Of a stretch of 64,000 nt of DNA, positions 36,581-61,792 are shown one piece after another. A model generated the notes under the pieces. That model was not told the DNA's origin. It ran no database searches and saw nothing but the letters and a program-made list of their open reading frames with translations. Every line of letters begins with the position of its first letter. The first letter of the stretch is position 1. Made by a program: the position numbers and the translations under genes. Origin of the DNA: Ruditapes philippinarum (Eukaryota); assembly GCF_026571515.1 (NCBI RefSeq), contig NW_026864423.1, forward strand, positions 1 through 64,000, in the 5' to 3' direction.

Positions 36581-37716
36581 AAATATCTTCAAACGACACA
36601 TCATCCACTGGGGGGATTCACATTTGTTAAATTTCTTCCCTGACAAAATTTCCGTTTATATTGCAACAAGTAATAAGGACTGATTCATAATGGTTTTTGA
36701 AAATATATTGTAAAACTCTTAACAGATATTTAGTTGAATCAAGTGACCAAATGATGGAGCTAATGATCAGCCATTCAGCTCTCTTAAAATGTCGGCTTAC
36801 AACTTACTAACATTATGATATAAAAGCGAACTTAGTTATTATCCATAAAAATCAAATGTAGCCTGGCAATTATCTATATCGCTTTGGTTTATACAGAATT
36901 TATTTTAGTTCGATTGTGTAGGAAGCTATTAGCTTGTAAACACACTTTCGAATCCGTTCCTGGAACCAACCTAAGTACTGAGCAATGAGTGTAAAATTCT
37001 TGCTCAAGGAAACAACGACTTGCCCATGTCAGGGTTTGAACCCGTGCGGCTAGCGATCATTTGATTACAAGTCCGACGCGTTAACCACTCGGTAATGCCG
37101 CCACCTTTATTTGGAATCTTCAAAGTCATGTAAAGCCCTTCACATTCCGAATATTCAGTAAAACCTCACTAATGAGACCACCGAAGGGATTTCGGAAATC
37201 TGGTGTTAATAGCGAGTTGGTCATATAATGAGTTTGGTCAGACCGAAAAAACTGACATAACGTTTACAAGATTTTCTACACATTGTACAACTATTTTTCT
37301 GAACTGTTTTATTTTCAAGTTTCTCTCTAACGAGAGAATAATATTTTGATAATGCACACTTTCGTTATTTTTCTATTTTGACATTACAAATCTCTTTTTT
37401 TAACAAGGAAAGAGATAAACACAACTTCATCAAACAATTTTAAATGTACATTTCATTGAGATATGAGCAAAACGATTTGTGCAAAGATTGCCATTTTAAT
37501 ATTTATTTATTTTCGCTATACAAAATATAAAAATGCATACAGTTCTGAATATAAAACAATTATGCAATAAAAAACAACACCATAGTGACATATCGGCAAA
37601 GTCATTCAGTTATCCCGATTGTGTTATTCAGTATTATAAAATGCATGCAAACTAAACACTTGGAAAGGAAAAAAGTCTTTCTTCATCAATATACCACAAA
37701 TAAGAATTAAAAAAAT

Positions 37717-37919
37717 GAGCCGCGTCACGACAAAACCAACGTTATGCGTTTGCGACCAGCATGGATCCAGATCAGCCTGCGCATCCGCGCAGTCTGATCA
37801 GGATCCATGCTGTTCGCTTACCAACCCTTTCACAAGTAGAGACACTGATAGCGAAAATCATGGATCCTGATCCATGATGGTCGCAAAACCATTATGTTGG
37901 TTTTGTCGTGACGCGGCTC
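37717..37919. mobile_element. Sola-type MITE
   Basis: TIRs, AAAT TSD. Confidence 0.78.
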
Positions 37920-39780
37920 AAATGTACATTTGTCCAGCTTATGTCTCTATGAAATGTTTTGATTCATAACCAACCATAAAAAACTACTTTGAACGTTGTT
38001 TTACACTTAACCTGCTGGAACCGGAAGTAATTATCTTGGCCTCTTCCACCAGTCAAGAACAATGCCAGTCTGCACATCTGTCCAGTTTTACCAGTCTACT
38101 GTACTATGCATTAACTAAATTATTTACTATGCCGATATTGAAAACCCTTAACTTTCGTAAAAGTTTGTTTTAAATTAAAGCAGGACAAATCCTTTGCATA
38201 CATTTCGCAGTTATTCTTGTTCTAACACATGATAATTATATACCATAGACATACATGTATACGTTTTTTTCCAAAATGTCTATTATTATAGTAACAGAGA
38301 TTTAGTTTTGATAGGTAATATTACAATATGTCCCAAGACGCGATTTATATAACATAAACCCATTCATATATGGCCATATAAACTGTCAAAAGTTTTTATA
38401 ACGAAGTGATGATAATGTACAAATACCTCTTTATTTTGGTTATAAAAAGAGAAAATAATTTACAACTTTGCTATGCATAGCCGTGTAAATAGAAAATATA
38501 AACGACACGATTATACAGACGTGAAATTTCACAAGAATGAAGTGTTCGTTATCACTGTAAAAGTCTCTAGACCAATGGTCCTACTTAGCTAAAACGTAAA
38601 GATACATGCCTCCATATGAGCTAAAAGAATTAAAGAAAATCAACCTTAAATAAAAATTAATGTACTAAGATTATAAGAGAAGTAGAAATATTTATAATTT
38701 ACTCAATAATTTACATGTTACATGCAATGAATGACTGATTTAGCAGTATTTTCCCCCCATTTCTACTGCGTGACTCACGGAGTAAGGGCTTTTTTTGTAT
38801 AGCTTGACATTTACTTGATAATTTACGTGGACTGAAGCTGACGTTTGAAATGTGTTATTAACTTTCTTTGTTCACTTATAAAGATAGATAATTTATTGAC
38901 GTAAACTTTCAGTACATAGTCATTTTACACACATTTGTATAGTACAATGAAACACGATATCATGGTACATGAACAAAAGTTGTGGCACAAAATTTTCAAT
39001 TTACATATTTTTGGAGAATGAACGTTAACATGAACGTTAACAGCATTTAGAACTAAAGTAAGCTTAGCTATGAAAAAGCGTTTACATTCTTAAAGATATA
39101 AAAAGTGGATTTTAAGCTTAATCATATGCTGTGATAAGATTGCATTTAGCAGTGATTCATAATTGACACATTATCAAGTAATTTCAAGAATAAACAATAT
39201 CATTCTCAAATATAACGAGACAAATTTATACATTGACTTACAGAGCATTAAGTAGTTCAATTTGATGCTTTGTAGCATAAAACAAATATTTACCTAAACC
39301 TATACTGTATATAATTTTACTTTTTAATACATTTTCCTTTTTTTTCCTTTTTTTTTAATAAGCTTGAATCTGGAGGCATGCTACTTTAAACAACCCGAAA
39401 ACGTATCTTTTACATCCAAGTAACCTTTCAACGAAACTAAATGATAATTATATACAATCTAATAGTCTATTATTAAAATTTAATAAAACTACTTATATAT
39501 AATTATATGACTACACGATATTCAACCATAAAATAATAAAACAATTTCCCACCACAATATAATATAAACACAATGCATACAATATCCAGGAAGTTTAGTC
39601 TCTGTCATGTCATTTGTTCAGATAATCTATATAATATAAATATATAAAAAATGGCTCAGCGTCATTAAAGTGCACCAAAAGTCATTCACTTCTTCGGCAA
39701 ATTTACGAATGTTTACATGTAAGGCATATGAGAAAATCTATTGTCAGCAGTTCTGTTGCAGATCTTTATAAGCAGTATTT

Positions 39781-40013
39781 GAGCCGTGTCATGACAAAAC
39801 ACACATAATGGGTTTGCGACCAGCATGGATCCAGACCAGCCGACGCATCCGCGCAGTCTGATCAGGATCCATGCTGTTCGCTATTAGTTTCTCTACTTGT
39901 TATAGTTGGTAAGCGAACAGCATGGATCCTGATCAGACTGCGCGGATGCGCAGGCTGGTCTGGATCCATGCTGGTCGCAGACCCTTTATGTTGGTTTTGT
40001 CGTGACGTGGCTC
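39781..40013. mobile_element. Sola-type MITE
   Basis: TIRs, ATTT TSD. Confidence 0.8.
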
Positions 40014-40043
40014 ATTTTATTTTTTGACACGTATCGTCTGCAC

Positions 40044-41423: not shown

Positions 41424-41874
41424 TGTTGTTCTATTTATACATTTAAGCCAAACTACTTTTCGTTTCCTGTTTGGAGCAAACAAGTTCCTGACTGCAAATA
41501 ATGTCAAGTGAAAGGTTTGACGTGTGAAAGGTTTCTTCAATCTATTTTACAAAACCCATAGTTTCATGATTGCAGATTTGTATTATAGAAATTGAAAGTT
41601 ACGAAAGTATAGCAATAGACAGAGCATATAAGTTTAGTTTAAGCTCGATTGCGAAACAAGTTCTTGCAACTTATATTTATCACTTTCGAGTCCGCTTCAT
41701 GGAACCAACCAGTACTGTCATATGAAGTAACATGTTCGTGACTCGAGTATGCTTCGAACTCATGACCCCTGGGTTGAAAGGCAAACACCTTAACCACTAG
41801 GCCACCGCTGCCCTTTTTATCTCTTCGAGTCACTGACGGATAGGAAAACTTTAAGTACCAAAATTAATACTTAC

Positions 41875-42076
41875 ATATGCTGACTAAGCCAGTCTTTAAC
41901 ACAATCTTCATTTTGGTTCTTAGTCGCAGGTATCTGCCTGCTGGAATCGTCGCAGCATCCTTTATATGCAATGCCTATTTTTAGGCAACAGTAATCTGGA
42001 CATAGTTCCGCTTTATGTTTTTCTCCGGAAATGTCCGTGTAACTTCCACAGCAGTCCGCGGCTTCTGAGCCCTGAC
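41875..42076 (-). CDS. Shisa-like gene copy 3, exon 2
   Basis: 202-nt AG/GT exon; GQGSEAADCCGSYTDISGEKHKAELCPDYCCLKIGIAYKGCCDDSSRQIPATKNQNEDCVKDWLSQH. Confidence 0.88.
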
Positions 42077-43763
42077 CTGTCAACATAAACAATCTTTACA
42101 GTTGAACTTTGTATGAGGTGGACATATGCGCTATTGATCCGGATATAGATTGTATTTGATACTGCTACAGGCGAACGCAATGGAATATCAACATTATTGA
42201 ACTCGATAACACACATGCCATAATTATCTGGAAAACTATGTATGTATGTTGTCGAAATGAGCGCCAGGCACAAAAAGCATCATTCTGAACATCTCGGCCG
42301 AAGTTTGACGAAAGAGACGAGAAGATGCAACTACGGACCCCAGTCATGTCAGGGTTAATTTTTGAAAGATTGCCACGGAGTATTAGCTAAAGATATGTAT
42401 TTCTTAATCAAAAGTAAGTCATTGTACGTCGGCCAATGAGAACCTAAATGTATACACAAAAAATATACATGTAATAACCTGAAACAATATAAAGAGGAGG
42501 AGGTAGCCATACATCTGCAAAACTAACAATTAAACAATATATACAATTTAAACGCCCAACAATACGCCTACACATTTACAAGATCTACCGCCATTCTTTT
42601 GTTTCTTGAGCGTTAATGTATAATTATGATAAAAACTCAAGGATGAACGTACGATTGCTTCAAAGATAAGTCGTGTGTGTTTACCTCGTGTCTAATTTAC
42701 ATCAACTAAATCTTAGAGAAGCAAGCCTCCAGATTCAGCCAATGCCATTAAAATGGCTGATATTGTTGTATCAGATTATCTTCTTACAGTTCATTGAAAA
42801 GTAAAAAAATAAAATAAAAAAATAATCGAATATTAGGTCTGTATATGCGTTTAAAGTGACATTATCCCCATCCAAGTGTATAAATGAGTGAACAGGTGAA
42901 AGTCAAAATAAGTTTTCATTTTGCCATAATTCCTTCTATAATATACAATTATTTCACATAAACAATAAACAACACATGAAATCAAACGATTTTTTCGTAA
43001 ATATCCATTAGAATTTACCTGTAACGTTCAGTTCATAAAAAGAGTGGGACAGTCTTTTAATATTTTAGGCAGATTTAAAATTTTATCCTAAACAATTTTG
43101 TCCCAAACATTTTCCAATATAAATTGTTGGTCAATCACCATTTTAACAGTCAATATTTTGAAGCAAATATTCAGTTCAGCTCAAATTGACTATGAAAATA
43201 TCAGCATAATGTATGAGATATTTTCACAATCTATAAACAAAATTGTATAATTTATGATATCTTTAAGATATCATTACCAGTCATAACTTTACAGTATTTC
43301 TGCATTTGCAGCAAGTGTATAAATATCTAGCAGATATTTTTTTTTTACTGGTAAATCAAAAAAAAAAAAATCTAATTTCGTTTTGTATCTGATTTTTTTG
43401 TTCAAAAGTTTCTAGACGTTAAAGGTGTTTATCTTTCATGGATATTTTTTAACGATGTTTTTGTGCCCTGTGGGCGGCTAGGTCAACCGCCATTAAAGTG
43501 GGGCACATTTTCATTAGTATTTCAAATAATGACAAAATCGATAGAAATGTATCATTTGGATATTCTTATTAAATGCTGCATAAACAAGTGTTGATAAAGT
43601 TCTAGATCCAAGTGTTTTAGAATGATCATTTAAATTATCTGATAAATAATAATAATTTGATTTAGAACAATTTATTATCTGTTCTATGAATATATTTGAT
43701 ATTGTATCATGTATTTCACTCTTGCCAACAACTTCCATGCATGATTCTTTCATTGTTTGTTGT

Positions 43764-46132: not shown

Positions 46133-46650
46133 AGTAGTATATGCGCCTCTTTAGCGCCACGACTGCGCATGCGCGACGCCATATTAGATTCTATAGTTAG
46201 AATGACATTATCGTTCTATTTTTAGAATGTTAGCATTCGTCTATTTTTAGAAATCTATTTTTTAATCTCCCGGAAGTATACGGAGCTGACTCGTACACAC
46301 GATCTAGGGCTTGAATTGCGGACATTGTAGGTCAGGTCCTCGTCCCTAGACGGAGAGATAAATATTATCATTTATAAAAGAATTGTCTGAAAATAAATAC
46401 CTGCTTAACATTTTAATAAATAAAAGCAAATAAACTAGAATTAGAAAAATACAAATAGCTTATGTTTTTTAATATGGTCAAAACGTGATCGTAGTCACAG
46501 TGTCTGGTGTATGTTTATTTAGGGACGGATGTGCGGACAATGGTCCATTCAACTGTAAAAATTAATCTCTTTAAAGTTGCCACTTGGTCTGGCGTATGTT
46601 TACTTAGGGACGGATATGGGGACAATGGTCCATTTAACTGTCAAAGTTAA
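46133..46650 (+). repeat. Polinton left TIR; runs into about four ~85-bp tandem repeats extending to ~46850
   Basis: Reverse complement of ~62710-63340. Confidence 0.92.
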
Positions 46651-46919
46651 TCCCTTTAAAGTAGCCACTTGGTCTGGCGTTTGTTAATTTAGGGACGGAT
46701 ACACTAACAAAGGACTTTTGAGATGCCAAAGTTAATCTCTTTAAAGTCGCCATTACGTTTAGCGTGTGTTGATTTAAGGACGGATGGGTTAACAATAGTC
46801 TTTTGAAATGTTAAAAATAAACCTTTACAAGGAGTCACGTGTTTGATGATGTATATATCTAAAATTAGCAATGATGTTCTATTCTAAAAATAACTACCAA
46901 TAAAAACGTTTCTTTAGAC

Positions 46920-46980
46920 AGCCAATCAAATGCAAAAAGCAAGTGACCAATCAGGAGAGACCTCTGTTGTATATAAGACA
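46920..46980 (+). promoter_or_regulatory. Putative Pol II promoter (two CCAAT boxes + TATA) upstream of the PC4 gene
   Basis: GCCAATCA at 46921, GACCAATCAG at 46946 and TATATAAG at 46970; ATG at 47030. Confidence 0.5.
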
Positions 46981-47029
46981 GTGATACACTTACACTGGTC
47001 ATAAGAGTTTTGATACTCGACCAATAAAT

Positions 47030-47521
47030 ATGACTAGCTACAGATGCAAATTCAGTATCGGTAATCAGAGATATGTACAAGTTAATGAATGAAAAGGCGA
47101 GCTGAGAGTCGATATCAGAGAATGGCAGGATGACAAACCAACAAAAAAGGGCATCAGCTTAACGTTAATGCGATGGAAAAACCTGATAGATCAGTTAGAA
47201 TATGTGGACAGAGCTTTACAAGACAAGCAACACTATAGGTCCCACGTTGGAGGAAATGTCTACTGTAACATCACCGACAACAGCGTATGTGTAGACATTA
47301 GACAATACTGGAAGCCAGAACAGGAAATAGTACCAACTAAAAAGGGTATATGTTTAAGACCCAAAGAGTATTCCTGTTTAAAGGAACTTGTTGTAGAGAT
47401 AGGACGAGTGTTACCTGAATTGGATGCAGTGGTGCCCTGTTATCTACAAAGTGATCACATGAACCAGATTGGAGCTCTACAATGCCTAGAATGCAACCCC
47501 AATGATTGTGGAAACTTGTGA
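47030..47521 (+). pseudogene. Tandem PC4 (p15/Sub1-like ssDNA-binding) domain protein with one premature TGA
   Basis: RYVQVNE*KGELRVDIREW...PTKKGISLT and CVDIRQYW...PTKKGICL; stop at 47090-47092. Confidence 0.85.
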
Positions 47522-47623
47522 AATAACGTGACTATAAATAGCAATGACAAAAGTACTATAAATAGATCGATAACCTCATTCTAAAAATAACATCAAATCA
47601 AAAATCAAACAGCGCGTATATAA

Positions 47624-48064
47624 ATGAATACCCCACGAAGCTTTGGCATACACAAACTGAACGTCACTGACTGCACACCCCTCAACAAAAATATGGAATA
47701 TTACGAAAATAGACTGAAGACGTTTGAAACCTATCCGAAACAAATGATACCAGATAAATATCAGTTAGCAAGTGCGGGATTGTATTATAGCGGAAAATCA
47801 GAGTGTTTCAGATGTCACATTAAATTGAGTGACTTAGTAAGATCAGACAACGCTTTGAGAGAACATTACAAGTGGTCACCCCATTGCGAATATATTAAAA
47901 TAGTAGGCGCTCCTCAACAAAAACCGATCCCAATAGGCGGATTTGGCGCGTTTGTATCAACACCTAAGCCAACACCTTGCGGCTTTGGAGGACTAAGTTC
48001 AACTACAACTGGAGCAAACTTGTTTGTCAATAATAAGGCTATCACGACCCACCAGACGCATTGA
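47624..48064 (+). CDS. Single BIR-domain (IAP-like) protein
   Basis: YENRLKTF...LASAGLYYSG..CFRC...D.A.REHYKWSPHCEY (CCHC Zn ligands); TATA boxes at ~47533 and ~47557. Confidence 0.85.
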   Translation: MNTPRSFGIHKLNVTDCTPLNKNMEYYENRLKTFETYPKQMIPDKYQLASAGLYYSGKSECFRCHIKLSDLVRSDNALREHYKWSPHCEYIKIVGAPQQKPIPIGGFGAFVSTPKPTPCGFGGLSSTTTGANLFVNNKAITTHQTH

Positions 48065-48267
48065 ATATGTTAACACGTGTCTGTATGGTTTGGATATGGC
48101 TGAGACACTATCAAGTGAGACGAGAATATCGCGAAGCTACAGGACATTTACTCGACATTTTGGAACGCTATATAGAAGAAACCAGAACACATACTTTATA
48201 CTCCACTGTATTGTAAAATGTGTCATAATTTTGTAAGAATGTATATTTGTATTTGTTGTCAATAAAC

Positions 48268-50415
48268 ATGTCTAACTGGAAACAATATTTGTCTTCTTTG
48301 TATTTTGACACATCCAACCCAGCAAGCTATTCAGGTGTAGAAAAATTGTACCAATATATCAAGTCTGAGGGAAAATTAAAATCGGGAGGCATAAAATCCG
48401 AAAATGGCTTCAAAGTCAGCAGGCCTATTCCCTGACTAGAGGAGCCAGAAGGAAGTTTCCTCGATCACGCGTCATTGTAGAAGGGATAGATAGTCAATGG
48501 GATATGGACTTGATGGATATGGTTGAATTTTTTTTTTCTTCTTTTTTTTTTTTATTTCTCTTTATTGTACAATGCAAACAATAAAAGTCATGAAATAATA
48601 CAATAATACAATACCATGAAATTTGATGTACTAACAATGTTGTGAAGTGATACACACAAATTCATACATTTGCAAAGTACTATATGTATTTTCTTATTAT
48701 ATTTTTTTTTAAAAGGCAAAGTTTACTCTGCACAAACGTTCAATTATTTAAGAGTTAAGTTACAACAACAATAAGTGTCACAATTTTTTACAGCTAATAA
48801 TGTTAGGTACTTTCATTTTCATTGATTAAGTTTTTGTATTCTTTCCATACATCCTGCATTGTTTCAAACCTAAGCATTTTTTTTTGGCATTGATTATTTC
48901 TGTTTTAACCAAAAATAGTAATTGATTTTTAAAAGCCTCTAAGCATGGCAATACGGACTTCATTTTACATTTGTAAATATAATGTTTTAATAATAATAAT
49001 ATATTATTCTCTGGAACTGTGAATCGGGAACAGCCGAAAACGACAGATTGTTCTGAAAAATGAAAAGATAAATTTGGAATTTTGTTTGTTAACCAGTCCT
49101 GCACGTCCCTTATAAACATGTTGACTATGTCACATTCCCAAAATAAATGTTTTATGGTTTCTGGATTGACATTACAAAATGTACAGTTGTCGTTGTCCCT
49201 AACATTAATCTTTTTCAGTACTACATTAGTACCTAAAATACGATGCGTTATTCTATATTGAAGCCATAAAAGTTTTGGATCCTTAGTCACTTTAAAGGGT
49301 AAAGAGTAGATACTTTTCCAATTAAGATAAATATTAGAAAAATCATTTTGCCATTTTATTTCTGATTTTGTCTGACGATTATTATTGACCAGCACGTCGT
49401 ATATTGCGCGACATCCTTTGCGACTTTTGTTAAGTATTTGGATGGCAATTGGCAATATCGGGTTTTTTACTTTGATATCATTTTGATTTACATGAAAATC
49501 CGTCAAAGTTTTTCTGAAGGAACGTATTATACCTTCATATTCAAGAAAGTTTGATCTAACATCAAATAATCTTTGAAATTCTTGAAAACTATAAAACAAC
49601 CCATTTTCTTTTACAAAATCGTTGACAAACAAAACACCTTTTCTTAAGTAGTGTTTAAATTCAAACGATTTTCCTGCAATTTTGAAATTAGGATTTAACC
49701 ATACCGGATTGGACAAGAAATCTGCCCAATTACCTGAACGAATTTTACATTGAAATAAATAAAATGAATTCAAAACACCCTTCCAAAACAAATTGTTTAC
49801 TCTACTTTTATGTTGTAACAAATAGTCACTACCATATTTGGTCGACTGGTAAAGAGCTGGACACAATTCTTGTACCAGAAAAGCATATTTAGTGTTTGAA
49901 GATAAAAGTCTTCTTATCCAAGTGATTTTCAAAGCACTGATGAAATGTATTAAGTCAACCGCTCTAAGCCCACCATTACATATATCTTGTGTGAGTTTTA
50001 TTCTACTTATCTTATATGGTTGACTTGGCCAAACATAATGACGGTTATAAATACGTTTTAGTGGCAATAGATATTTTTCTCGCTTTGGCTATTGTGAACC
50101 TATCAAAACCAAGAAAGAGGGTGATGTTGTTAATGCATTAGAGCGAATTTTATCCGGTCCTAGAAAACCAAATACGGTGAGAACAGACAGAGGCATGGAG
50201 TTAAGAAGCAAAGAGGTCAATAAATATCTTCAGCACAAGAACATTCATCACTTCTACGCTTTAAATACGGAGACAAAAGCGAACTTTGCAGAGATATGTA
50301 TCAAGACGCTAAAGCATAAACTGTTTAGATATATGATAAAAAACAGAACCCAACGTTACGTTGACGTGCTCAGGAATATTACACTTTCATATAACTCAAC
50401 TATACATAGAAGTCT
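48268..50415 (+). pseudogene. Polinton retroviral-like (rve) integrase; frameshifted, split by L1/Tx1 and C-terminally truncated
   Basis: YFDTSNPASYSGVEKLY...SQWDMDLMDM | DGYKYVLVAIDIFSR...VRTDRGME...KANFAE...YNSTIHRSL. Confidence 0.9.
48527..50013 (-). mobile_element. 5'-truncated L1/Tx1 non-LTR retrotransposon
   Basis: Poly(A) at 48528-48553; TSD ATATGGTTGA at 48517-48526 and 50014-50023; ORF2 C-terminus with GGL...LKITWIRRL and zf-RVT CTFC..ETIKHLFWEC. Confidence 0.92.
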
Positions 50416-50420
50416 TATAC

Positions 50421-51125
50421 AATGGCACGGAAGTGTCACATTGCAGGTTCCATGAAAACCGCCGTATGAACACATCTGCGGATGTTTCTAAATTCAAAAT
50501 TTTACTATTTCATGTTTAAATGTTGAATTCTGCTTAATCCGGTGCTAGGGGGCGTGGACGGTAACTTGCACTTTCCAGTACCGTCCTTGGATAGGCTCAA
50601 TCAAACCGAGCCTGCAACATTTTCAATATTGCCGTGTTGGGCTTTCTTTAGATATTCTGTATTTATCTATTTTATGATCACATCCGTGTTATTTGTGCCG
50701 TGTGGCGGCTGTAAAAAAGTCTCCCCGTACATTTAATCAATGATGTTATATTCTCGATCCTTGAAGATCGTTCAGCACGACATTATTGTTGTGCTTGTGG
50801 TATTTTTAGTTTCAACTTTTCGGCATTTTCTAGTTGGGTGGTTCCAATATTACTACTTGAATAATGTTGAATCACCCTTATGATATGTTGCCTGCTTTTT
50901 AAATTTGTCTTTTGACGTCTTATCTGTGATACGCAGGCTTCATAACCTCTGATCCCCTTTCAAAATTCCATTTTATTTAGTTCCGCCCATTGTTTTCTCG
51001 TTTAGGGCACACGCTTTTTATTACTTGGGGACCATACGCCGCTTTTCATGGAATGGTACGGAAGTGTCACATTGAAGGTTCCATGAAAACCGCCGTATGA
51101 ACACATCTGCGGATGTTTCTAAATT
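50421..51125. repeat. Unassigned insert bounded by ~74-bp direct repeats (631-bp period)
   Basis: aatggcacggaagtgtcacattg...gatgtttctaaatt at 50421-50494 and 51052-51125. Confidence 0.8.
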
Positions 51126-51185
51126 AGAGATATACCCCCCCCCCCCCCAGAGAAATTGTCATTAATGATATTGAAACTTTACATC

Positions 51186-51713
51186 ATGATAATTACCAAC
51201 GTCGTGTGCAGCGTTAACTTTAGCTGTTCCATTGACTTGAGGCATTTATGCTATCGTATAGCAAACGCTCGTTATGATCCAAAAACATTTTCCGGATTGA
51301 TTTGGCAACACAAAACCATTGGCGGAAAATGTTTAGTTTTCGCCAATGGTGTAATCAATTGCAACGGAAAGGCACCCAGTGCTACAGAGGGGCGTCAGAG
51401 ACTACGTCAATATGAAAGACGTATACAACGTCTCGGATTTACAGTACGGCTGAAAGAGATCAAATTGATAACAATATCCGCAAGTCATACCTTAAGTAAC
51501 GCCTTAGATCTACCATTGTTGGCAAAAGAAAGACAGATTATCTATGAACCAGAGTTGTTTCCCGCCCTAAACTTTAAAAGAGAAGGAGTCAACTTTTGTT
51601 GTTTTCATACTGGTAAAGTGGTGATTACTGGGATTAAGTCGCTTTCACAAATAGATGACATAGTCTACCCTGTACTTATTGAGCTGGAACTCTACACACG
51701 TAAGAAAGAGTGA
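51186..51713 (+). CDS. TATA-binding-protein (TBP)-like protein
   Basis: Two TBP repeats: ITNVVCS..IDL...ARYDPKTFSGLIW...LVFANGVINCNG and ISAS..LDL...YEPELFPAL...FHTGKVVITGIKS. Confidence 0.9.
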   Translation: MIITNVVCSVNFSCSIDLRHLCYRIANARYDPKTFSGLIWQHKTIGGKCLVFANGVINCNGKAPSATEGRQRLRQYERRIQRLGFTVRLKEIKLITISASHTLSNALDLPLLAKERQIIYEPELFPALNFKREGVNFCCFHTGKVVITGIKSLSQIDDIVYPVLIELELYTRKKE

Positions 51714-51732
51714 GCGCTGAGAGAAATCAACC

Positions 51733-52080
51733 ATGAATCAGTCTCAAGTGTACCGTAAACTCAATTTCCTTCTTCAGTTAAAAGATGCCACTGTAGCTGC
51801 TAGAAAAAATATGATCACTAATATGACAGGGGGTCATATGAAGGCTATAGTGCAAGTGGCCAAAAGATTGGTGAATGGAACCATTAATCCCCCGAGAAGA
51901 GATGTTCAATTACTTGAAAGAAGACAAAATTTGCTACGATCCCTAGCTTCTGAAAATGTGTCGCTGACTAGAAAGAAATCTCTGTTAAGACGTCATCACT
52001 CGTTTGTATCCGTATTGTTAAGACCACCGTATCTCTTAGACACTATTATGGACGAAATACGGACAACTAGAGAAGCGTAA
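51733..52080 (+). CDS. Small basic Polinton protein
   Basis: Intact 115-aa ORF in a compact gene array; similar to 54860-55182. Confidence 0.7.
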   Translation: MNQSQVYRKLNFLLQLKDATVAARKNMITNMTGGHMKAIVQVAKRLVNGTINPPRRDVQLLERRQNLLRSLASENVSLTRKKSLLRRHHSFVSVLLRPPYLLDTIMDEIRTTREA

Positions 52081-52119
52081 GAAGACAGTGGTCATATGTC
52101 TGTGTGAAAGCAAACAAAC

Positions 52120-52553
52120 ATGTCAGACTTTTACCTATATCTCAGTAGTAGTGATTCTCAGGACATACGTAAGAACAATAAACCCGCAGACTTTTATATT
52201 CAGTTTCCCAAATCGTACACCTTTGATGGACATTGGATTTGCGCTGTGACAGAAATTACTCTCACCTGTGACTTTACGCCTAAAAGTAAAAGACTGTATT
52301 TATGCTGCAACCTGATACAACAAACGTAAGAAATACGCAAGTACCCGTACTTAGAAATATTGAAGTCGGTTCGAGATACAAGAAACTTCAATTTTTAGAA
52401 TATAGCCACCCAGTATACGCACCAGTGACTGTGAATCATTTCAACTCCTTACATTTGTATTTGAGAGACGAAGATTTAAACTCAGTTGAGTTCATTTCCA
52501 ACGATCTTCATTGTGTATTACATTTCAAAAAGTATAGGCTCCATAGAAGTTAA
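52120..52553 (+). pseudogene. Minor capsid (penton)-like protein with one frameshift
   Basis: FYLYLSSSDS...NKPADFYIQFPK...GHWICAVTEI, LYLCCNLI, PVLR, YAPV, LYLRDE...VEF...VLHFKK. Confidence 0.75.
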
Positions 52554-52902
52554 CGATCACAAACAACAAAAATTGGTACCCTATACACCCAACCCTGAAA
52601 AATGGTATCAACATTTCAAGGATATGAGTGAGGGTTATGTAAGACCCGATCACAGAGGCCGTTACATCGTCGGTAGCGGTAATCATCTTAGAAACCTGAC
52701 CGAAATGAGACAACAACCTCCTCAAGTAAAACTGGTCTCACCCGTAGCACAAGCGATAGAAATAGCAAAGTCAGAGGTCAATCGTAAGAAGGTTGAATTG
52801 GGCAAAGAGCGTAAGAAGGGGCCTCAAAAGCGTAAGAAGACACCTATAACCGCCTACAAATCATCTAAACGAAATAGAACAAATCCAGAATTTCAATTTT
52901 AA
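52540..52902 (+). CDS. Hypothetical protein with a basic tail (candidate virion core protein); start uncertain
   Basis: YTPNPEKWYQHF...VKLVSPVAQAIEIAKSE followed by a K/R-rich C-terminus; lies directly upstream of MCP. Confidence 0.55.
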   Translation, partial: SIEVNDHKQQKLVPYTPNPEKWYQHFKDMSEGYVRPDHRGRYIVGSGNHLRNLTEMRQQPPQVKLVSPVAQAIEIAKSEVNRKKVELGKERKKGPQKRKKTPITAYKSSKRNRTNPEFQF

Positions 52903-52904
52903 AC

Positions 52905-54161
52905 ATGGAAAATTTTCATCAGAAAGAGCTGTCTTTGTTTGTTACACCCCCTGCAGACACGTCATTACAATCGAGAGAATGGATTACATACCGTCCAGTA
53001 AATCAAGTGACAAACGCATCCGCTCTCGAATTTAATATACCGGGTCATACATCGGCGTACTTGGATCTAAAAAGAAGCGTGCTCAACCTAAAACTGCAAA
53101 TAGTCCACGGGGACGGTAGTGCAGTAGATCCGGACGAAGTAGTTGGTCCTATCAATTTACCATTACACACCATATTCGGTCAGATCGATGTATCTCTTCA
53201 ACAAACGCCTTTTTCGCATACAGGAATCAATTATCCCTATAAAGCGGTCATCGACACGATATTACAGTCCAACGAAAATATGCAAATTAACCTACTGACC
53301 AGCCAACTCTTCCATAAAGATACGGGAGACGTTGGTACCAATGATGGTAAAACAGGAAGTAATGGTGGACTATTTTTCAGATACAGACTCGCTAAAGGTA
53401 GCAAAATTGTAGAAACGGAAGGACCATTACACTTTGAATCTTTTCAACAGTCGAAGCTACTCATTAACGGAGTCTCTGTAGGTATAAAACTCCATCCTAC
53501 CAGAGACCCATTTAGATTAATTACAGGCACCGTCAATCCCGATTATCGAGTGAAAATAGTGGACGCATATTTTAAACTATGTATTCAACGTCTAGCTAGT
53601 AGCGTACTTATAGCGCACGAAAAACTTATTCAAGACACACCAGCCGTATACCCTTACTTACGCACAGAGATCAAAACGACAGCTATTGCTACGGGTCAAT
53701 TCAGTTACAGCGCGGACGATATCTTTCAAGGATTAGTGCCCAGTAAACTGATTGTAGGTCTAGTTCCGAGTGCCGCGTTTAATGGTGATTACGCGCAGAA
53801 CCATTTCAACTTTAAACATTACAACTGCAGCTTTGTAGGACTCTATGTGGATGGACAGTCTTTACCTAGCCAAACGATGCAACCTAATTATACGGCTGAT
53901 CAGTATGTTGAGTGTTACAGAACATTAGCTCTCTACAGAAGCGATGTGAACATCTCCAGACAAGATTATAAGAATGGCTACTGTTTGTATGCCCTAGATA
54001 TTGACCCCTACTATTCATTCAACACGAAAAGGAGGGGCCATTGTCGTCTAGAACTCAAGTTTGCAGAGGCTTTACCAGAGAGCGTCACCTTGATTATGTA
54101 CGCCACATTCCCAGAAGTACTCAATATTGACAACCAAGGGCCGTCTATAGGAAATGAATAA
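52905..54161 (+). CDS. Major capsid protein (double jelly-roll, Polinton PY)
   Basis: 418 aa; ELSLF..P..TS, YRP, LEFNIPG..YLDL, PINLPLHTIF, YPYKA, LLINGV, FNFKHYN, LYVDGQ, GYCLYALD, RLELKF. Confidence 0.9.
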   Translation: MENFHQKELSLFVTPPADTSLQSREWITYRPVNQVTNASALEFNIPGHTSAYLDLKRSVLNLKLQIVHGDGSAVDPDEVVGPINLPLHTIFGQIDVSLQQTPFSHTGINYPYKAVIDTILQSNENMQINLLTSQLFHKDTGDVGTNDGKTGSNGGLFFRYRLAKGSKIVETEGPLHFESFQQSKLLINGVSVGIKLHPTRDPFRLITGTVNPDYRVKIVDAYFKLCIQRLASSVLIAHEKLIQDTPAVYPYLRTEIKTTAIATGQFSYSADDIFQGLVPSKLIVGLVPSAAFNGDYAQNHFNFKHYNCSFVGLYVDGQSLPSQTMQPNYTADQYVECYRTLALYRSDVNISRQDYKNGYCLYALDIDPYYSFNTKRRGHCRLELKFAEALPESVTLIMYATFPEVLNIDNQGPSIGNE

Positions 54162-54563
54162 TTTAGAACTGGAACGTTTACTTGAAGGATACCCAGTCCA
54201 GGTGTGCGCTGCTGATCAAATCCGTAAACAAAAAGGAAAATTCGTAATCGCTAATACAGACACGAGTAATGGACCAGGGAAACATTAGGTTACCTTTTAT
54301 TTTCCAAGACAAGACCGTACGAGTTCTTTAACTCTCTCGGAAAAATACCAAGTGACTACAATGTGGGCTTTGAAACTGTATTAACGAACACGTTTTGGAT
54401 GGTGTGTGATCCTATTCAGGACACTAAATCAGATACCTGTGGACTGTATTGTGTATATTATATCATGGACAGATGTACATTTTGTACAGGAAGTACTATA
54501 AAAGACCTTGTCAAACCTTTTAATGTAAATGATAGACAATGGAATGATATATATTGTAAATAA
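54154..54563 (+). pseudogene. Adenain-like cysteine (maturation) protease with a stop and a frameshift
   Basis: IANTDTSNGPGKH*(W)V...EFFNSLG...IQDTKSDTCGLYC; TAG at 54286-54288. Confidence 0.85.
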
Positions 54564-54707
54564 AAACAGACATTAAAATGTATTTATATGTATTTTATTT
54601 TGTATGTATCAATAAATATAAAAAGAGAAGAACATTGTCTTTGTTGTTTCTTTAATAAATCCAGTAAATAGTTTTGTCAATAGTTTTAAGAGTCATTTTG
54701 GGTTTCT

Positions 54708-54860
54708 TCACACTTTTTGTTTTCTTTTCACGTTCCCCAGGTGGCGGCAAGACACTTTAGGTGGGATAAAATGGTCATCTTTTACTTCTCCAAACCCTTT
54801 GTAACTAGGCTGCAGTATGCGCTGGTACTTTTCGTAAGGAAAAAGAATAAACTTTTCCAT
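54708..54860 (-). CDS. Small Polinton protein, probably frameshifted
   Basis: MEKFILFPYEKYQR; the start overlaps the stop of the upstream gene. Confidence 0.45.
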   Translation of the reverse strand: MEKFILFPYEKYQRILQPSYKGFGEVKDDHFIPPKVSCRHLGNVKRKQKV

Positions 54861-55182
54861 TATTGTAGTACAGGTTCCAAATACGCTAAGGTAATTTTCA
54901 CCAAAATATATATTGTTCTCAGGTTGCCTGGAATAGCTTCTTTTTCTTTTGAAATCCATTTTTTTGTTTCCAAGCAAGTAGATAAAACGTCTATGTCGTT
55001 TAAAAAGTGATTTTCAGTAGACGTCAATTTTATCGTGAATCGCAGAATGTTGTAGGCGATTTGAGCTAGCACTTTTAGTTGTTTTTTCGTAACTGTTCTT
55101 AACAATGCTTTCCTTTGGGACTCACTGTAGCGTCCACTAGTAAATTCAAAATATGGCGTTGCTGTTTGATGAGTTCGACCAT
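54860..55182 (-). pseudogene. Small basic Polinton protein, frameshifted
   Basis: LLRTVTKKQLKVLAQIAYNILRFTIKLT...RHRRFIYLLGNKK, pieced across frames. Confidence 0.6.
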
Positions 55183-55211
55183 AATTACTCTTACAAGTTT
55201 CGTACTGCTTC

Positions 55212-55865
55212 TTACGTTAATCTGTAGACTATAGGGTCCTCCCTCGGGAAAATTTGAGTTCGTAATCGATATTTATCCTCAGCATGTGGACTCATGTCTA
55301 CCAAAAAGTAACCGTGCTTTGTGCTTAGGGCGTCTTCATAGGCTTTAACAAATCCTTTACTTTTACCGGGATACAACTGCCGTCCCAATATTCCCACCTG
55401 AGAGACATCTCTTAAATTTTTCATCAATACCATATACCATGTATTTAAAGCAATTGTTCTAGCATGTTTACCTCCTGGATACAAGTTTTGCGTGATAAGT
55501 ATGACAGACACTCTTCTGTGATGACATCCTTGCGTGAAAAGAAGCTCCATATCTTTGTTTTTCATAACTTCGTGCATAAGATCGTCAACGATAATAAGTT
55601 TATGTCTCTTGTCTTGGGTAAAATGATCCAGTTCCTCCACTGTTGGAAGCCCTTGTTTACTATAAAAGTTTGGAATGGATCTTTCCATCTCATCAAATAA
55701 ATCCTGATGAATTCCATAAGAATATAAGATGTGTGTTGGTGGGTCTGCAGAATACATATCCTTCACGTTTTGCAAAAATTTGTACACCCATTGCGTTTTT
55801 CCGCTTCCTGTCTGACCACTTATACATATACTGGAGCATGGTTCGAACGGTAGGGATGACTTCAT
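55212..55865 (-). CDS. A32/FtsK-like DNA packaging ATPase
   Basis: Walker A GQTGSGKT; Walker B LIIVDDLM; ILITQNLY; ARTIALN. Confidence 0.93.
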   Translation of the reverse strand: MKSSLPFEPCSSICISGQTGSGKTQWVYKFLQNVKDMYSADPPTHILYSYGIHQDLFDEMERSIPNFYSKQGLPTVEELDHFTQDKRHKLIIVDDLMHEVMKNKDMELLFTQGCHHRRVSVILITQNLYPGGKHARTIALNTWYMVLMKNLRDVSQVGILGRQLYPGKSKGFVKAYEDALSTKHGYFLVDMSPHAEDKYRLRTQIFPREDPIVYRLT

Positions 55866-56146
55866 TATTTCTTTAGCTTTGGACTGGGTAAGGCGTATCC
55901 TATACAGCTACTTAATAGACTTATCCACAATTCGCTAGCACCGTTTTGAAGAGATAAGTTAATGATAGAGGTAATGATAATAATGTAGACAATGATCATT
56001 TGGCAAAAATAGACAATTTCAGCCTGGGGTACTCGTGCTCCTAATAAATGCCAACGGTCACTAGTGGACCTGCTTTCGTCTTCGTTAGAGTGTGGAAAAC
56101 GTATAAAAGTTTCCCTCTCTGGTGTGTGAGTGTCTGTAGGATTCAT
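55865..56146 (-). CDS. Small two-TM membrane protein
   Basis: IVYFCQMIIVYIIIITSIINLSL and LWISLLSSCIGYALPSP; abuts the ATPase start. Confidence 0.7.
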   Translation of the reverse strand: MNPTDTHTPERETFIRFPHSNEDESRSTSDRWHLLGARVPQAEIVYFCQMIIVYIIIITSIINLSLQNGASELWISLLSSCIGYALPSPKLKK

Positions 56147-56289
56147 ATTCTTACGTTTTATATTGAAAATAAAATACAAAGACATTATATTCTTACATAC
56201 TTTTATTCAATAATATACATTTTTCAAACAACACGTGACAAATAACAGAAAAAGTAATGACAAAAATTGAAAAAACAAAAACATAAATA

Positions 56290-56480
56290 GAAACGCTAGT
56301 GACAAAAACTGTAACGCTAGTGACAAAAACTGAAACGCGCCCTATGGAAATTTACATGTAAACGTGCAAAAACTGAAACGCTAGTGACAAAAACTAAAAC
56401 GCTAGTGACAAAAACTGAAACGCTAATGACAAAAAATGAAACGCTAGTGACAAAAATTTAAACGCTAGTGACAAAAACTT
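56290..56480. repeat. ~21-bp tandem repeat (GAAACGCTAGTGACAAAAACT) in the Polinton intergenic region
   Basis: About 7-8 units visible. Confidence 0.85.
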
Positions 56481-56543
56481 CAACATACTTGACAAAAATA
56501 GAAATGCTTATTACAAATACAGCATATTTTACATTCATTTTAT

Positions 56544-59500
56544 CTAACATCCGTATGGTACAGTATCAAATTGTTCAATTCTTCTACGTTTGGTATACAC
56601 CATCTGGTAACTTTTCTTTTCTTCTCTATTATACATTTTTCTTTTTCTTCTATCTCTACAAATTTTACTAGGATTGGTTACAATAATACTTTTATCACTT
56701 TCTCCATCTGTAACTATTTCTTTCACACTTTCAAAGTTGATAAGTTGGCTATTTGTATAATTTAATGTGAAACCCCTAACTTTACAAGTTTCGTTGTTTT
56801 TGTTGGTTATATAGGCATAATTTTTAGGACCACCCGACACAAATTATACAAAGTGCTCTCCTCCACTCAGCTCATCCGTGAGTTCACCCAAGAAATCTCC
56901 TAATGGCGGATCATACTGTTCAGGGCGACTCACATAGATGACGCTGTCCGTATCGTAATACAGTACTCGTCTATCGAGCTTTTCGAGCACACTGTAGAGT
57001 TTGAGTCTGGCCCAGCATGTAGTAAATGTAGCTAAGTAGTTGTTCGTTTTATTATCTTCGGGTTGGCAGTCTTGTTTATATTGCCATTCTATTTGTATCA
57101 TGTCATTGGTAAGTATGTGAAAATTCAGAGGTTCTTTCGTCGGATCGGCAAACAACTGAAAGAACAGGTTGGCCTGTAGTTCGTGAAAGAACTCTGTCTG
57201 GCGCATATTGAGTCTCTGACCAAACTTGTCCCAAAAACTGTTGAGACATAATTTAGCCAGAGCTCTCAAACCCGGGTTCTTCGAGATGTTTGCCCGATCC
57301 ATTGAAACTCCCTCTTTCTGTAAGTATTGAGACACATAATTTGTCATATCTTGCTCATTGTGTATCCAGTCAGGAGAACCGCTTGCCTCTTGCTTAAACT
57401 TTAAAAATGTGTTTATGTAATTGGCAAACAGTCCCCCTGATCTGGTCTTTGGGTCATATTGTGTGGATTCCTCCCAGTGGTATACTTCATAAATCTTTTT
57501 GATTTGATATCCTAATTTAACGGCCGTTTGAATCTCTGGAGTACACCACGTACCAGTCAACTCTCTTTCTTGTTCAGAACATGCGCATGGGTTTTGATTC
57601 TTAGCATCGGCGCAGGTCCTACATAGGGGAAATTTCAACTTGTTATTTGAGCGATACGGTATCACGGGATGGTATAATCCTCTAGGTGGTAGTATTTTAA
57701 CCTTAGCTATACCAAAATAGCTCTTGATATCTTTAAAATCTTTGGTTATGATGGTAGGATGTCCTACGGGATATTTACAATACTTATTCACCCATGGATA
57801 CAAGCTCGTGAAATCCACGTACTTGATTTGTTCCTGTTCGTCTGCTTTGTAATAGAGTTGACTGGCATTGGTGCGAACCCCAAAGAAAATTTCCCTCGGG
57901 TCTAACCTATAAATTATATCTAAGCTTTCTACGTATTGTTTCAGTTTAGTATTTTGAATCTTTTGTTTTTTGAATTCGTGGTCCCAAATGCAAACGTATT
58001 TCATGCCTAACTGTTGAATGTAAGCGTTCTTTTTCATTGTTTACGCATACAATTCATCTAATGATTGGTTAGTGAGTAGGTGGCGCTTTTCTTCTCGGTT
58101 ATCTGTGAATCAATCAAGGCATCCATGAAAAATACAACCATGGCACTCATAGGCCGTGTTTGTTTCTTCACAGTAACCGTCGAATTTGTAACGCGTTCCC
58201 GGTAAAGATTTCTCTCCCTTATTTAAAGCATGCTGAATTTTGACGTTTTTTGTACACGCCACCCATTCTTACCATTGTATGGACGCTTCGCTATATTGAT
58301 CATTATAACCACTAGGAGGAATTTTCGCTATGGGTGTCCTTACAAATTCTGTCTCAGTTACTTTCTCACCCGTGAGTTTGGTTTCGAGGATCCATTCATT
58401 TCCACGCAACACATAAAGCTTTCCGTCTATTAATTTTGAAGGTATCCAATCATCACTGCCCTCTAATTTTACTTTCCATTTTTCTTCTAAAAATTTGGTT
58501 CTAAAGACATTCATGCAGACGGAAGCTATGGTCACGGAATCGAATGGATCCACGGCTCCGACCCAAGTTTTTTCTTTCTTTCCTTTTTCATTCACCGCCT
58601 CTATTCTTTCACCCTAGCACTCATTAACAACTCTCTAAATTTCAAACACGCTTGTCTTAAAATATCTACATCACTCCTACAATAATCTAATATTTCTTTT
58701 CTCAAATCAAACACGTCGTCCTTTCTCTCACTCAACCACACTAACAATTCAGCTCTCTCTTTCTCACTCATAAAATCATGACCATAACACCGAGCATCTG
58801 GGTACGGGCGTACATAAGTTTGATTTTCGCTAGTATTGAAGTAATGGGGAAACCAACCTTTCTTTAATTCAGTCAATCCAAACGCTTTAGGGAGGGCGGA
58901 CAATTTCATAGGTAAAAAATTCAAACTGTCAATCACTCTGACATGTAAATCTGACTCTATTGTCATATACATAATTTTGAAGCCACTGTAAATAATCTTG
59001 TCCGGTCTCATGGATTGGTCTATTAAGTACTCTAACAGAAAATAACCGTCGTAACCTTTCATATTATGAGCAAATACTTTGAAATATTCGTGCTGGGGGG
59101 ATAACAACCATTCGCCAAATTTTTCTGCAGTGTCGGTCCCTTCGAAAGTGACTTCACTGAATCCACATTTTCCAGGACACGGTCCTGGGTCTTCATTGTC
59201 GTGTAAATCAGAGTTGTCACATTCGTCGCACCGTGAACCGCATTTTTTACATATAGATTCGGGGGTCAATGGTTTATCAATACATTTTGGACACACAGTA
59301 TGTGCTACTACAAAATTGGGACGATGAGTGGCTTTTCCGCACCAAGATGATTTACAGTGTTGACATTTAGAGCAAGATTTACATACCTCTTGTGATTGAC
59401 AGTCTTTACAATTTCGTTGTCTATTTGGTAAATATCCGTTTTCACACTCTAACACTTCATCTTGACTACATTCAAAATCAAAAAATATAAATTTAGAATT

Positions 59501-61117
59501 GTAATGTTCCTTGACTGGTGTGGCTCTCAAATAACATAAATGTCCTTCTATTACATATTGTACCTATGACGTACTCAGGTATTCTCCGCACTCCGCTCCT
59601 CTTTTTTCCTTTTATCGGTTCTTAATACTTTATAACAGGTAGGGCATTTCCAATATTTTGACACCGGATGGTCCGCTGGGGTTTTCCTTTACATTTTCCT
59701 TTTCTATGTACTGGTACTGTTTTATGTTGTTTAAAACATTTGTCTGATCTGCATGTCTTGTTACAGTCTGTGCATTTGACTGTGTTGTCTGTTTCTGGGC
59801 AGTTGTCCGTCTTACACACAATACAAGAGGTCTCACACTGATGATTTTCTCTGTGGTCGTAGCGTTTGAGGCATTTGTCGCAGAAATACCTCGCGCTGAA
59901 GAATCCTGTAATGCTGGTGATGGCGTGAAAGTGGTCTGGCACTGACCACCATCACGCGCACTCCCAACACTTCTTCAAACGCATCCACGTTGTTTAAACT
60001 GGCTGGACGATCTAAGGGCACTTCGGCTAGTTGACTGATGGCCACCGCTAATTGTCTCTGTTCGTCTCTCTGTTTATTCCTCAAATGTTTGTAGTAACTT
60101 TCTGGTACTTGCTGGGTTTCTAGTATAACTTGTACATTGGATTTCTTTTGGCGTTTTTTTAGCAATCTCTTTCCATTCTTCCGGTGTACAACTATTAAGT
60201 TTCGCCCAACTCACCCTTATTGCCCTCGCCATAAACATTTGGTGATCATTTTCGATGGTTACTATTGAGGTTTTCAATTTTAATGAATTGTTCTTGCCTT
60301 TTAGTTTGGTAATTCTTCGCCTTGCTCCGCCTTTTGGTAAATCAATAGTGCCTATGGAGATGTAAAAGCTTTCATCAATGGATAAGTTTTGGTTGCTGTT
60401 GAGTACTTTTTCAATTATTTCCATAATTTTATTGGCGTCCAACTGGTCCAAGGGCTGGAGAGGAACTATGATGGGGTCGTGTAATACTTGATGATGAATA
60501 ACGACACGACCCAAGTCATTTCCCGCTAAATTGCCCCGGGCTTCTTCCAACACGTTTTCAAACATTTGGTGAAGTCCAGCTCTTACATCTTGCAGTCTCT
60601 GTCCATTATACTGATCATCAATTTTAATCTCATATGTACGATCCACTGCCGCTTTTTTTGCATACGTCCTTTCTGATTTTTCTCTTATCGTATACTGAAG
60701 TTCCCGTGGGGCGTCGGGTCTATGAGATGGTCCTGGTTGAGTATCATCCCCACCCCCTATCATGAATGGCAACTGAGGGCTCCACTCCCCATCGTTTACA
60801 CAGGCTGTCGCCATCTCATCCATTTCTTCATCAAATAATAATGCTTTCACTGCACCTTCGATCTCCTCTTTCTCTCTTACATAATCTAGGCTAATTCTAA
60901 ATTTTTTTCATCGAGTGACCCTCCTAAACTGTGCAGTATATTGTTCAGTTCCTCCTCCACAAAGTCAGCATCGTAATGGGGGGTTCCTCAATTGAAAAAG
61001 ACGGAACCGCACCCCCGGGGAATCCTGTATCCCCCATGTCGCAGCAAAATTCATTAATTCGTCAGCGTCGGTGAAAGAATTCACCATCATTTCAAAGGTA
61101 GCTGCAATATTTTCCAT
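56544..61117 (-). pseudogene. Protein-primed family B DNA polymerase (pPolB), multiply frameshifted
   Basis: ExoI FFDFEC; ExoII AHNMKGYDGYF; ExoIII YCRSDVDIL; YVDFTSLYP; KLCLNSFWDKFGQ; YYDTDS; GGPKNYAY; KVRGFTLN; start approximate. Confidence 0.93.
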
Positions 61118-61660
61118 GTTACTTGTTCGAGTTATGAAATCAGAATGACGATGGGAGTTCGTGCGCGTTATTATATACTCTCCACAAAGCCTCATTTTCA
61201 AAACGATGTAAGATATTTTATATTAAGTAAGAACGTCATCAATCTGAATACTGATTGGTTAGATAATTATAGCACTACCGGTTCAAACTAGTCACAACTG
61301 AACAGTCACGTTATCGACAAGTTAAAAGCAAGCACAATACTTTTTGTGAGAGGATTAAATCTTTGTCAATATCTCTATTGATAAAATCAATGTCCATTAT
61401 ACCGCATTCGGGTTTGAATAAACAAACGCCAAACAGCGTGGATACTTTAAAGGGATTAATTTTGACACATGAATAGGCTATTGTTAATGTATCCGCCAGA
61501 CATTGTGACTATAATTACGTTTGATTCACTCGTGATCAGATCTAAAAATAACTAATAAAGTCATAGACCCGAGCATTTAGGAATAATACACTAATGCTTT
61601 GTGTCATTTGGTTTCAGGCCGTCAGGAGTAAACAAGTAATATTTTTATTAAATAAGCAAT

Positions 61661-61792
61661 ACCGGTTAAAGTAGTCATAACATAATAGTCACGCGATGAA
61701 CAAGTTACAAAAAAGTGCATTTTCTTTTACCGGTTAAAGTAGTCATAACATAATAGTCACGCGATGAACAAGTTACAAAAAAGTGCATTTTC
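61661..61792 (+). repeat. 68-bp tandem duplication
   Basis: accggttaaagtagtcataac...aagtgcattttc occurs twice. Confidence 0.85.

Follow-up and report, generated by a model that had tools for sequence, protein, structure and literature searches.

The timing of capsid-gene expression in animal Polintons, and their possible dependence on a helper virus, are addressed here from an element in a 64,000-nt stretch of Ruditapes philippinarum DNA (contig NW_026864423.1, positions 1 to 64,000; hereafter the window). The window contains a degraded Polinton/Maverick (Table 1) in which genes for a TBP-like protein, a tandem PC4 protein and a single-BIR protein are found together with polymerase, integrase, ATPase and capsid-sized genes. 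A preliminary description had reported the three as intronless, co-oriented open reading frames (ORFs) inside the terminal inverted repeats (TIRs), with which the Pfam matches and TIR mapping agree, and had proposed that they form a cassette for host takeover. We read the evidence presented here as pointing to control of late genes of the element itself, not to takeover of the host. We think it probable, from the sequences, that the TBP-like protein is a late-promoter factor that reads the box YGTAAGAA and recruits host TFIIB and RNA polymerase II (Pol II), with the host making the early genes first.

A conserved box upstream of putative late genes

The octamer YGTAAGAA is found upstream of the genes for integrase (INT), orf115, the putative minor capsid protein (penton), the putative major capsid protein (MCP), orf107 and the membrane protein, whatever the reading frame, and it is kept whether it lies within RKK codons, over a TAA stop, or between genes. 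There are 17 matches in the window compared to 6.4 ± 2.6 in shuffled sequences, and 11 within the element compared to 1.8 ± 1.3 (maximum 6; 200 shuffles), all of them on the coding strand. Eleven incomplete metagenome loci with the TBP-like gene contain 41 copies on the coding strand and none on the opposite strand.

We scored the box (as YGTAAGA starting between −80 and −28) in one element from each of seven TBP-bearing lineages, and it is present in 24 of 28 regions upstream of integrase, orf115, penton, MCP and orf107. The four misses are the integrase gene of locus L058, two MCP genes whose box starts at −81 and −86, just outside the interval, and one orf107 that has a single copy at −13. 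It is present in none of 23 upstream regions in TBP-less Polintons from the same genome (nine, chosen from ATPase matches; a profile detected no TBP in the sequence fetched for each, which in some cases is truncated), nor in any of 10 regions upstream of PC4, TBP, BIR and protein-primed polymerase (PolB) genes. The best control is C9746, which has the integrase-orf115-penton-MCP-protease order of the TBP elements and neither TBP nor box. One TBP-less Polinton (C2745:205400-225399) has an ordinary TATAAA about 50 nt before several genes, apparently an alternative promoter strategy.

The distance from box to gene is mostly 34–49 nt, with a pile-up at 34–39 and no instances at 20–33 in the tabulated sets; assuming a start about 28 nt past the box, the first ATG is usually the actual gene start. 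Several PC4, TBP, BIR and PolB genes have ordinary promoters with TATA and initiator (Inr) sequences. Examples are the PC4 and TBP genes of C14730 and C1073, with TATA at −57 to −63 and TCA(T/G)T at −31; TCATT at −31 is also seen in sister PC4 genes. ATG triplets are depleted in genes that precede an overlapping gene lacking a box, with 4 against 27.0 expected in penton, 2 against 19.2 in orf107, and 5 against 16.3 in the membrane gene (four lineages), a pattern that fits long leaders from the proximal boxes or leaky scanning.

The TBP-like protein

The TBP ORF has two repeats (PF00352, E 1.5e-26) and its AlphaFold model (pLDDT 94) has a TM score of 0.90 to human TBP, such that both Pfam and the model support a saddle fold with the two repeats noted earlier. 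We aligned the 15 nearest homologs and compared 24 cellular TBPs, using yeast numbering throughout. Phenylalanines F99, F116 and F190 (15/15) and F207 (13/15), which we take to be the intercalating residues, are kept, as are E186 and E188 (15/15), presumably the TFIIB-binding E-x-E-L stirrup. The positions that we assume to read bases are changed: N159 is T and V161 is S in all 15 homologs, L205 is never leucine (15/15), V203 is N, H or T in 14 of 15, and V122 and T124 are likewise altered; I194 is never isoleucine (15/15). Family-wide, N159 is T in 78/90 and V161 is S or T in 86/90, and all 24 cellular TBPs retain N159, V161 and L205. The canonical cellular base-reading set is thus not conserved in the element protein.

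A yeast TBP with the changes I194F, V203T and L205V (TBPm3) accepts TGTA (PMC1636458). Like the element protein, it is altered at I194, V203 and L205, and position 2 of its site (TGTAA) is a G; it differs in being engineered, whereas the natural protein also alters N159, V161, V122 and T124 and its box has G at position 6. We predict from these comparisons that the element TBP binds YGTAAGAA.

The wider TBP-like family has 121 matches among 182 candidates, with many representatives of 165–185 amino acids (aa) that stand apart from cellular TBPs, although genomic context is known for only a minority. In a tree (FastTree, midpoint root, 127 of 162 sequences retained, with a risk of long-branch effects) the element TBPs are far from cellular TBPs, in a separate long-branched group of ~165–185-aa proteins. 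We considered whether the element had recently captured the TBP gene of its host and rejected this because the host gene has introns, its exons are 39–50% identical, and the distance in the tree is large. TBP and TFIIB are a textbook pair whose interaction is DNA-dependent, and the host TFIIB gene is split over exons. We also considered orf115 as a hidden TFIIB and rejected it; there is no Pfam match, TFIIB included, and the nearest atlas clusters are without a name.

A possible early-to-late switch

In the model that we favor, host TBP and Pol II would first transcribe the PC4, TBP and PolB genes, and the viral TBP would then turn on the morphogenesis and integration genes by recruiting host TFIIB and Pol II to YGTAAGAA, at a TATA-like distance. 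The model predicts that the element TBP prefers YGTAAGAA over TATAAAAG. The tandem PC4 would likely coat single strands displaced by the polymerase or help to melt promoters, and the BIR protein is an accessory that plausibly dampens apoptosis. A 16-kb element could thereby have its own early-to-late gene switch, and its encoding of a TBP together with a dedicated promoter box speaks for a nuclear cycle that is autonomous. The earlier proposal that the TBP redirects host Pol II is strengthened and made specific, because the matching promoter box is independent support for it; the host-takeover part is not borne out. It is an evenly balanced question whether a large clade of animal Polintons would have such an orthogonal TBP–promoter pair, with a herpes-like late program run by one 175-aa protein and exploited in trans by TBP-less satellites.

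Several observations weigh against the late-promoter model. The TBP-bearing elements form one clade in both integrase and MCP trees, so the association with the box amounts to little more than one evolutionary contrast, which Fisher P values for 24/28 versus 0/23 overstate; moreover, the −80 to −28 interval was set after inspecting the data, and genes with an unplaceable start were left out. YGTAAGAA is missing from L061 (1.3 kb, TBP 38–42% identical), the TBP locus that is most distant, and the ATPase, protease and orf121 genes have no box within 100 nt in autonomous elements. Satellite elements carry the box without TBP, and second box copies at −7 to −19 are also compatible with an initiator. 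In the protein, R105 (Q in 13/15) and K110 (G in 14/15), which we take to be phosphate-contact positions, are lost, and the positions altered in TBPm3 carry other substitutions.

The alternative that survives best, itself unlikely, is that a host factor or another element protein reads the late box and that TBP and box are simply co-inherited. The single clade and the box in TBP-less satellites are what this would give, but it does not account for the fixed TATA-like spacing or for changes in TBP at the very positions that read TATA base 2, and a search of the late-block ORFs yielded no second candidate for a DNA-binding protein.

Initiation, rather than TBP binding, is the basis of a second and quite improbable alternative. 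TAAG is the late initiator motif of baculoviruses, and the box, which includes TAAG and has proximal copies 7–19 nt before ATGs, could be an initiator that a large DNA virus, co-infecting the cell, reads with its RNA polymerase, the element being virophage-like; virophages are reported to have promoter motifs in common with helper viruses. The sharp lower edge at 34 nt is unexpected for an initiator, however, the PC4 and TBP genes have Pol II-type CCAAT, E-box, TATA and Inr sequences, and the element's own TBP is left without explanation.

Family, gene order and selection

In the 1.4-Gb genome, 50 of 55 candidates match the TBP query and 103 of 120 match the PC4 query, and the genes belong to a multi-copy family rather than to one copy. 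Nine of ten elements fetched from among the best TBP loci have the order PC4-BIR-INT-TBP-orf115-penton-orf121-MCP. The element C1073 (PC4-INT-TBP) has no BIR; in C1722, a PC4-like gene is at the opposite end of the element. PC4 is immediately 5′ of TBP in 6 of the 11 metagenome loci, and wherever a locus extends far enough to judge, the neighbors of TBP are integrase, capsid-block or ATPase genes. For TBP, PC4 and MCP alike, the nearest relatives with a name are bivalve sequences. Scans of IMG/VR with the TBP alignment and with the ATPase did not find relatives, and a GTDB scan confirmed three relatives without yielding loci. None of the holders of family genes is listed on record as RNA; four contig sets presumed to be RNA have low, flat cover and a GT..AG joint in 0 of 15 (of 18 joints), which, as contigs do not reveal starts, weighs neither way.

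These arrangements bear on a joint host-takeover cassette, for example with TBP as a decoy draining TFIIB, PC4 as a coactivator and BIR as an anti-apoptotic factor. Co-occurrence of all three genes in nine of ten sisters, the proximity of PC4 to TBP in metagenome loci and the conserved TFIIB stirrup are in its favor. Nevertheless we hold it to be improbable: the integrase gene (48268–51143 region) parts TBP from PC4 and BIR, BIR and TBP each occur without the other, PC4 can be at the other end of the element and is without its N-terminal region, and the box is left unexplained. A fourth reading, that the motif is an RNA signal (a GTAAGA splice donor or a 3′-end signal) and no promoter, draws on its likeness to GTRAG and frequent overlap with the upstream stop codon but is highly improbable, as splice donors have G at −1 and here the base before GT is C or T in 33 of 34 cases and never G, splicing from a donor placed shortly before an ATG would excise that ATG, and the motif is absent at the ends of PC4, BIR, INT and MCP and elsewhere lies 170–350 nt past stops.

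All three genes are under purifying selection in the family. dN/dS values (Nei-Gojobori; open ORFs only, broken copies excluded, pairs with dS>0.08, which are not independent) are 0.07–0.29 across the open sister genes, contrary to the neutral evolution that the preliminary description had set as a refuting condition. Medians are 0.10 for PC4 (16 of 21 pairs, many near saturation), 0.17 for BIR (17 of 28 pairs) and 0.17 for TBP (33 of 36 pairs), similar to the core genes (integrase 0.13, MCP 0.15, ATPase 0.08 and PolB 0.145). We note gene-by-gene mosaicism, in that the same two elements have dS of ~1.7 for PC4 and ~0.2 for the adjoining BIR, and that dS between sisters is high for orf107, the ATPase and the membrane gene; the mosaic pattern points to exchange of modules between elements. 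Four loci (C3865, C13550, C8776 and C9905) are internally deleted derivatives with PC4 (and BIR) within or between long inverted arms, and such derivatives may account for the excess of PC4 over TBP matches.

Tandem PC4 and BIR genes

Two PC4 domains are detected in an open sister ORF, as predicted from the window copy. The protein consists of two bare domains, the first beginning at residue ~5–10, and a conserved C-terminal CHCC; domain and model comparison found no PC4 N-terminal region. The N-terminal regulatory region of PC4 is required for coactivation, and its absence from these bare single-stranded DNA (ssDNA)-binding domains counts against the earlier placing of the protein in a takeover cassette. 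The model folds as an intramolecular pair (pLDDT 85), with Pur-alpha as the best structural match (Z 11.2, root-mean-square deviation 3.7, 125 residues). An ssDNA-binding protein is the more likely role, and as modeled the chances are about even that it serves strand-displacement replication; promoter melting or coactivation is only slightly less probable. A PC4 homolog of phage T5 is implicated in DNA replication (PMC7549692). The likeness to PC4/Sub1, the T5 homolog and Pur-alpha-type dimers (PMC7549692) is a beta4-alpha repeat occurring twice, whereas the element protein is a single-chain PC4 pair with a CHCC motif.

The BIR gene is a mobile accessory that has been gained and lost. It is absent from the TBP-bearing C1073 element, was seen in 0 of the 11 metagenome stretches (which are incomplete), and occurs in three Polintons that have no TBP (C13927b, C8727 and C9746) as well as in the satellite C7548; the three genes are not one cassette. 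A Pfam domain search found no RING domain in the protein. Its tail (window 47920–48030) has repeated GGFG/GFGG motifs that are kept in sisters.

Satellite elements

Four non-autonomous elements of ~7–8 kb (C7548 ~91000–99300, C5835, C11380 and C4055) have TIRs up to about 85% like those of the TBP-bearing Polinton (three of four compared). They carry orf121, protease, a BIR or PC4-like ORF, and an ATPase fusion of 450–490 aa whose N-terminal end is zinc-finger-like, and are without PolB, integrase, MCP and TBP, yet retain YGTAAGAA before their genes, at −39/−40 before orf121 in 4/4. Retention of the box in TBP-less TIR elements is as expected if the TBP factor acts in trans. This family is a candidate satellite of the TBP-Polinton, and dozens of ATPase matches in long frames suggest that it is abundant. 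If the late-promoter model is true, the box could serve to flag late genes, and satellites too, in the genomes of molluscs.

Comparison with known systems

The nearest functional parallel is ORF24, the TBP mimic of beta- and gamma-herpesviruses, which in KSHV, the Kaposi's sarcoma-associated herpesvirus, binds the Pol II C-terminal domain (CTD) via an extra N-terminal domain and needs a six-protein complex (PMC7498053). Both cases involve a nuclear DNA virus without an RNA polymerase and a TBP-like protein that brings, or here would bring, host Pol II to late promoters whose TATA box is a variant; the box distribution fits a restriction to late genes, the late class being putative in the element. 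Unlike ORF24, the element TBP is a bare 175-aa core without the N-terminal CTD-binding domain, with the TFIIB stirrup kept, about 30% identity to eukaryotic TBP and a different box, YGTAAGAA. If the model is true, this would be a natural altered-specificity TBP and a convergent, much simpler version of herpesvirus late transcription.

TBP-like proteins of Nucleocytoviricota have the same fold (Foldseek BFVD matches, 11–21% identity) and work with a virus-encoded RNA polymerase; the Polinton protein is nearer to cellular TBP in sequence, within its separate long-branched group.

Polintons/Mavericks correspond to adintoviruses (Polintoviricetes; Starrett et al. 2021, PMC8502044), with TIRs, protein-primed PolB, rve integrase, ATPase, protease and capsid-sized genes in common. 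IAP homologs are mentioned in that paper and in its preprint. In the accessible part of the paper, the maps of Mytilus and Pinctada have IAP labels, two cnidarian maps have SSDBP labels (Fig S2 text), and 'TBP' is a label in the Fig 5 legend, in a section on non-animal datasets; that part has no promoter analysis, no PC4 and no proposed TBP function. No statement on TBP, TATA or PC4 in Polintons was found in the accessible parts of PMC11131425, PMC11161782, 10.64898/2026.10.13.758929, 10.64898/2026.06.19.733378 and PMC12220804, and narrower look-ups in PMC8905726, PMC11296320, PMC11662393 and PMC4028283, likewise partial, had nothing relevant to a Polinton TBP or box. None of the literature matches listed deals with GTAAGAA or with a late box paired with a TBP in Polintons; Repbase, subscription journals or supplements may hold such annotation. 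Intronless TBP genes of the family are annotated as host 'TBP-like 1' in a clam genome, and such annotation can distort host TBP counts and probably PC4 and IAP counts.

Features of the window copy

The element has the hallmarks of a Polinton/Maverick, with long TIRs, AG-type ends (AGTAGT), a 6-bp duplication (flanks TACAAT/TACGAT), protein-primed PolB, rve integrase and ATPase; the TIR arms have stretches of 130–190 nt that are 94–97% complementary. This copy is a dead member of the family. Its lesions are an in-frame stop in PC4, a deletion in BIR (three residues inside the domain, relative to sisters), broken integrase and PolB genes (11 stops in the PolB alignment), and loss of the E-box/TATA promoter of the TBP gene along with the last ~150 integrase codons. 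The rve (PF00665) and chromo domains were identified in the sister integrase and are remnants here. The ~730-nt segment in place of the lost sequence has a ~65-nt direct repeat close to both ends.

The full virion module reported earlier stands in part: the ATPase, capsid-sized genes and a protease call are present, the last being a weak Peptidase_C5 match (E 0.0015, below cut-off), but the penton candidate and protease are frameshifted here. We named the putative MCP and penton from size, synteny, order and the source label 'F54H12.2-like', a label that marks Polinton MCPs; searches of both candidates against Pfam, PHROGs and the PDB had no match, and profile searches were empty. Penton is one gene before MCP in Polinton order (PMC4028283), and the candidates fit this.

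Table 1. Features of the Polinton copy and its surroundings in the window
Feature	Position	Strand	Remarks
Degraded Polinton/Maverick	46133–63340		17.2 kb, of which ~1.5 kb is a retrotransposon fragment; target-site duplication of 6 bp, one of them mismatched
Left TIR	46133–46815 (approximate)		partner right TIR ~62697–63340
Early-type PC4 promoter	46922–46977	+	CCAAT at 46922 and 46947; TATATAAG at 46970–46977, 60 nt upstream of ATG
Tandem PC4	47030–47521	+	PF02229; two ssDNA-binding domains and CHCC tail; stop at codon 21 (47090–47092)
Single-BIR protein	47624–48064	+	PF00653, E 2.5e-15; without RING
YGTAAGAA box	48232–48239	+	36 nt upstream of integrase ATG (48268)
Integrase remnants (rve)	48268–50416	+	frameshifts, insertion, 3′ part gone
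Non-LTR retrotransposon fragment (zf-RVT)	48527–50013	−	~1.5 kb, inserted in integrase gene
Segment not in sisters	50417–51143		in place of integrase 3′ end and TBP-gene E-box/TATA
TBP-like protein	51186–51713 (open from 51165)	+	175 aa, core only, altered DNA-reading face
YGTAAGAA box	51699–51706	+	34 nt upstream of orf115
orf115	51733–52080	+	conserved Polinton protein; no Pfam match
YGTAAGAA box	52076–52083	+	44 nt upstream of penton candidate; more copies at 52168 and 52325
Putative minor capsid (penton)	52120–52553	+	frameshifted; assignment by synteny only
orf121	52534–52902	+	conserved basic protein
Three YGTAAGAA boxes inside orf121	52783, 52810, 52831	+	122, 95 and 74 nt before MCP ATG
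Putative major capsid protein ('F54H12.2-like')	52905–54161	+	3′ end altered
Adenovirus-type cysteine protease (weak match)	54154–54560	+	broken (frameshift)
orf107	54863–55182	−	frameshifted
YGTAAGAA box	55209–55216	−	34 nt before orf107 ATG
A32-like packaging ATPase (Pox_A32)	55212–55865	−	open
Small predicted membrane protein	55865–56185	−	
YGTAAGAA boxes at membrane-protein gene	56148–56155, 56190–56197	−	
Protein-primed PolB (PF03175)	56544–61147	−	stops and frame change

In the host flank, a dispersed repeat of ~100–170 nt with terminal inverted arms, like those of miniature inverted-repeat transposable elements, is present at window positions 13270–17023 and 36436–40021. A short ORF at 41871–42086 on the minus strand has a weak match to the Shisa N-terminal domain (E 0.0011, below cut-off) and is probably a host exon.

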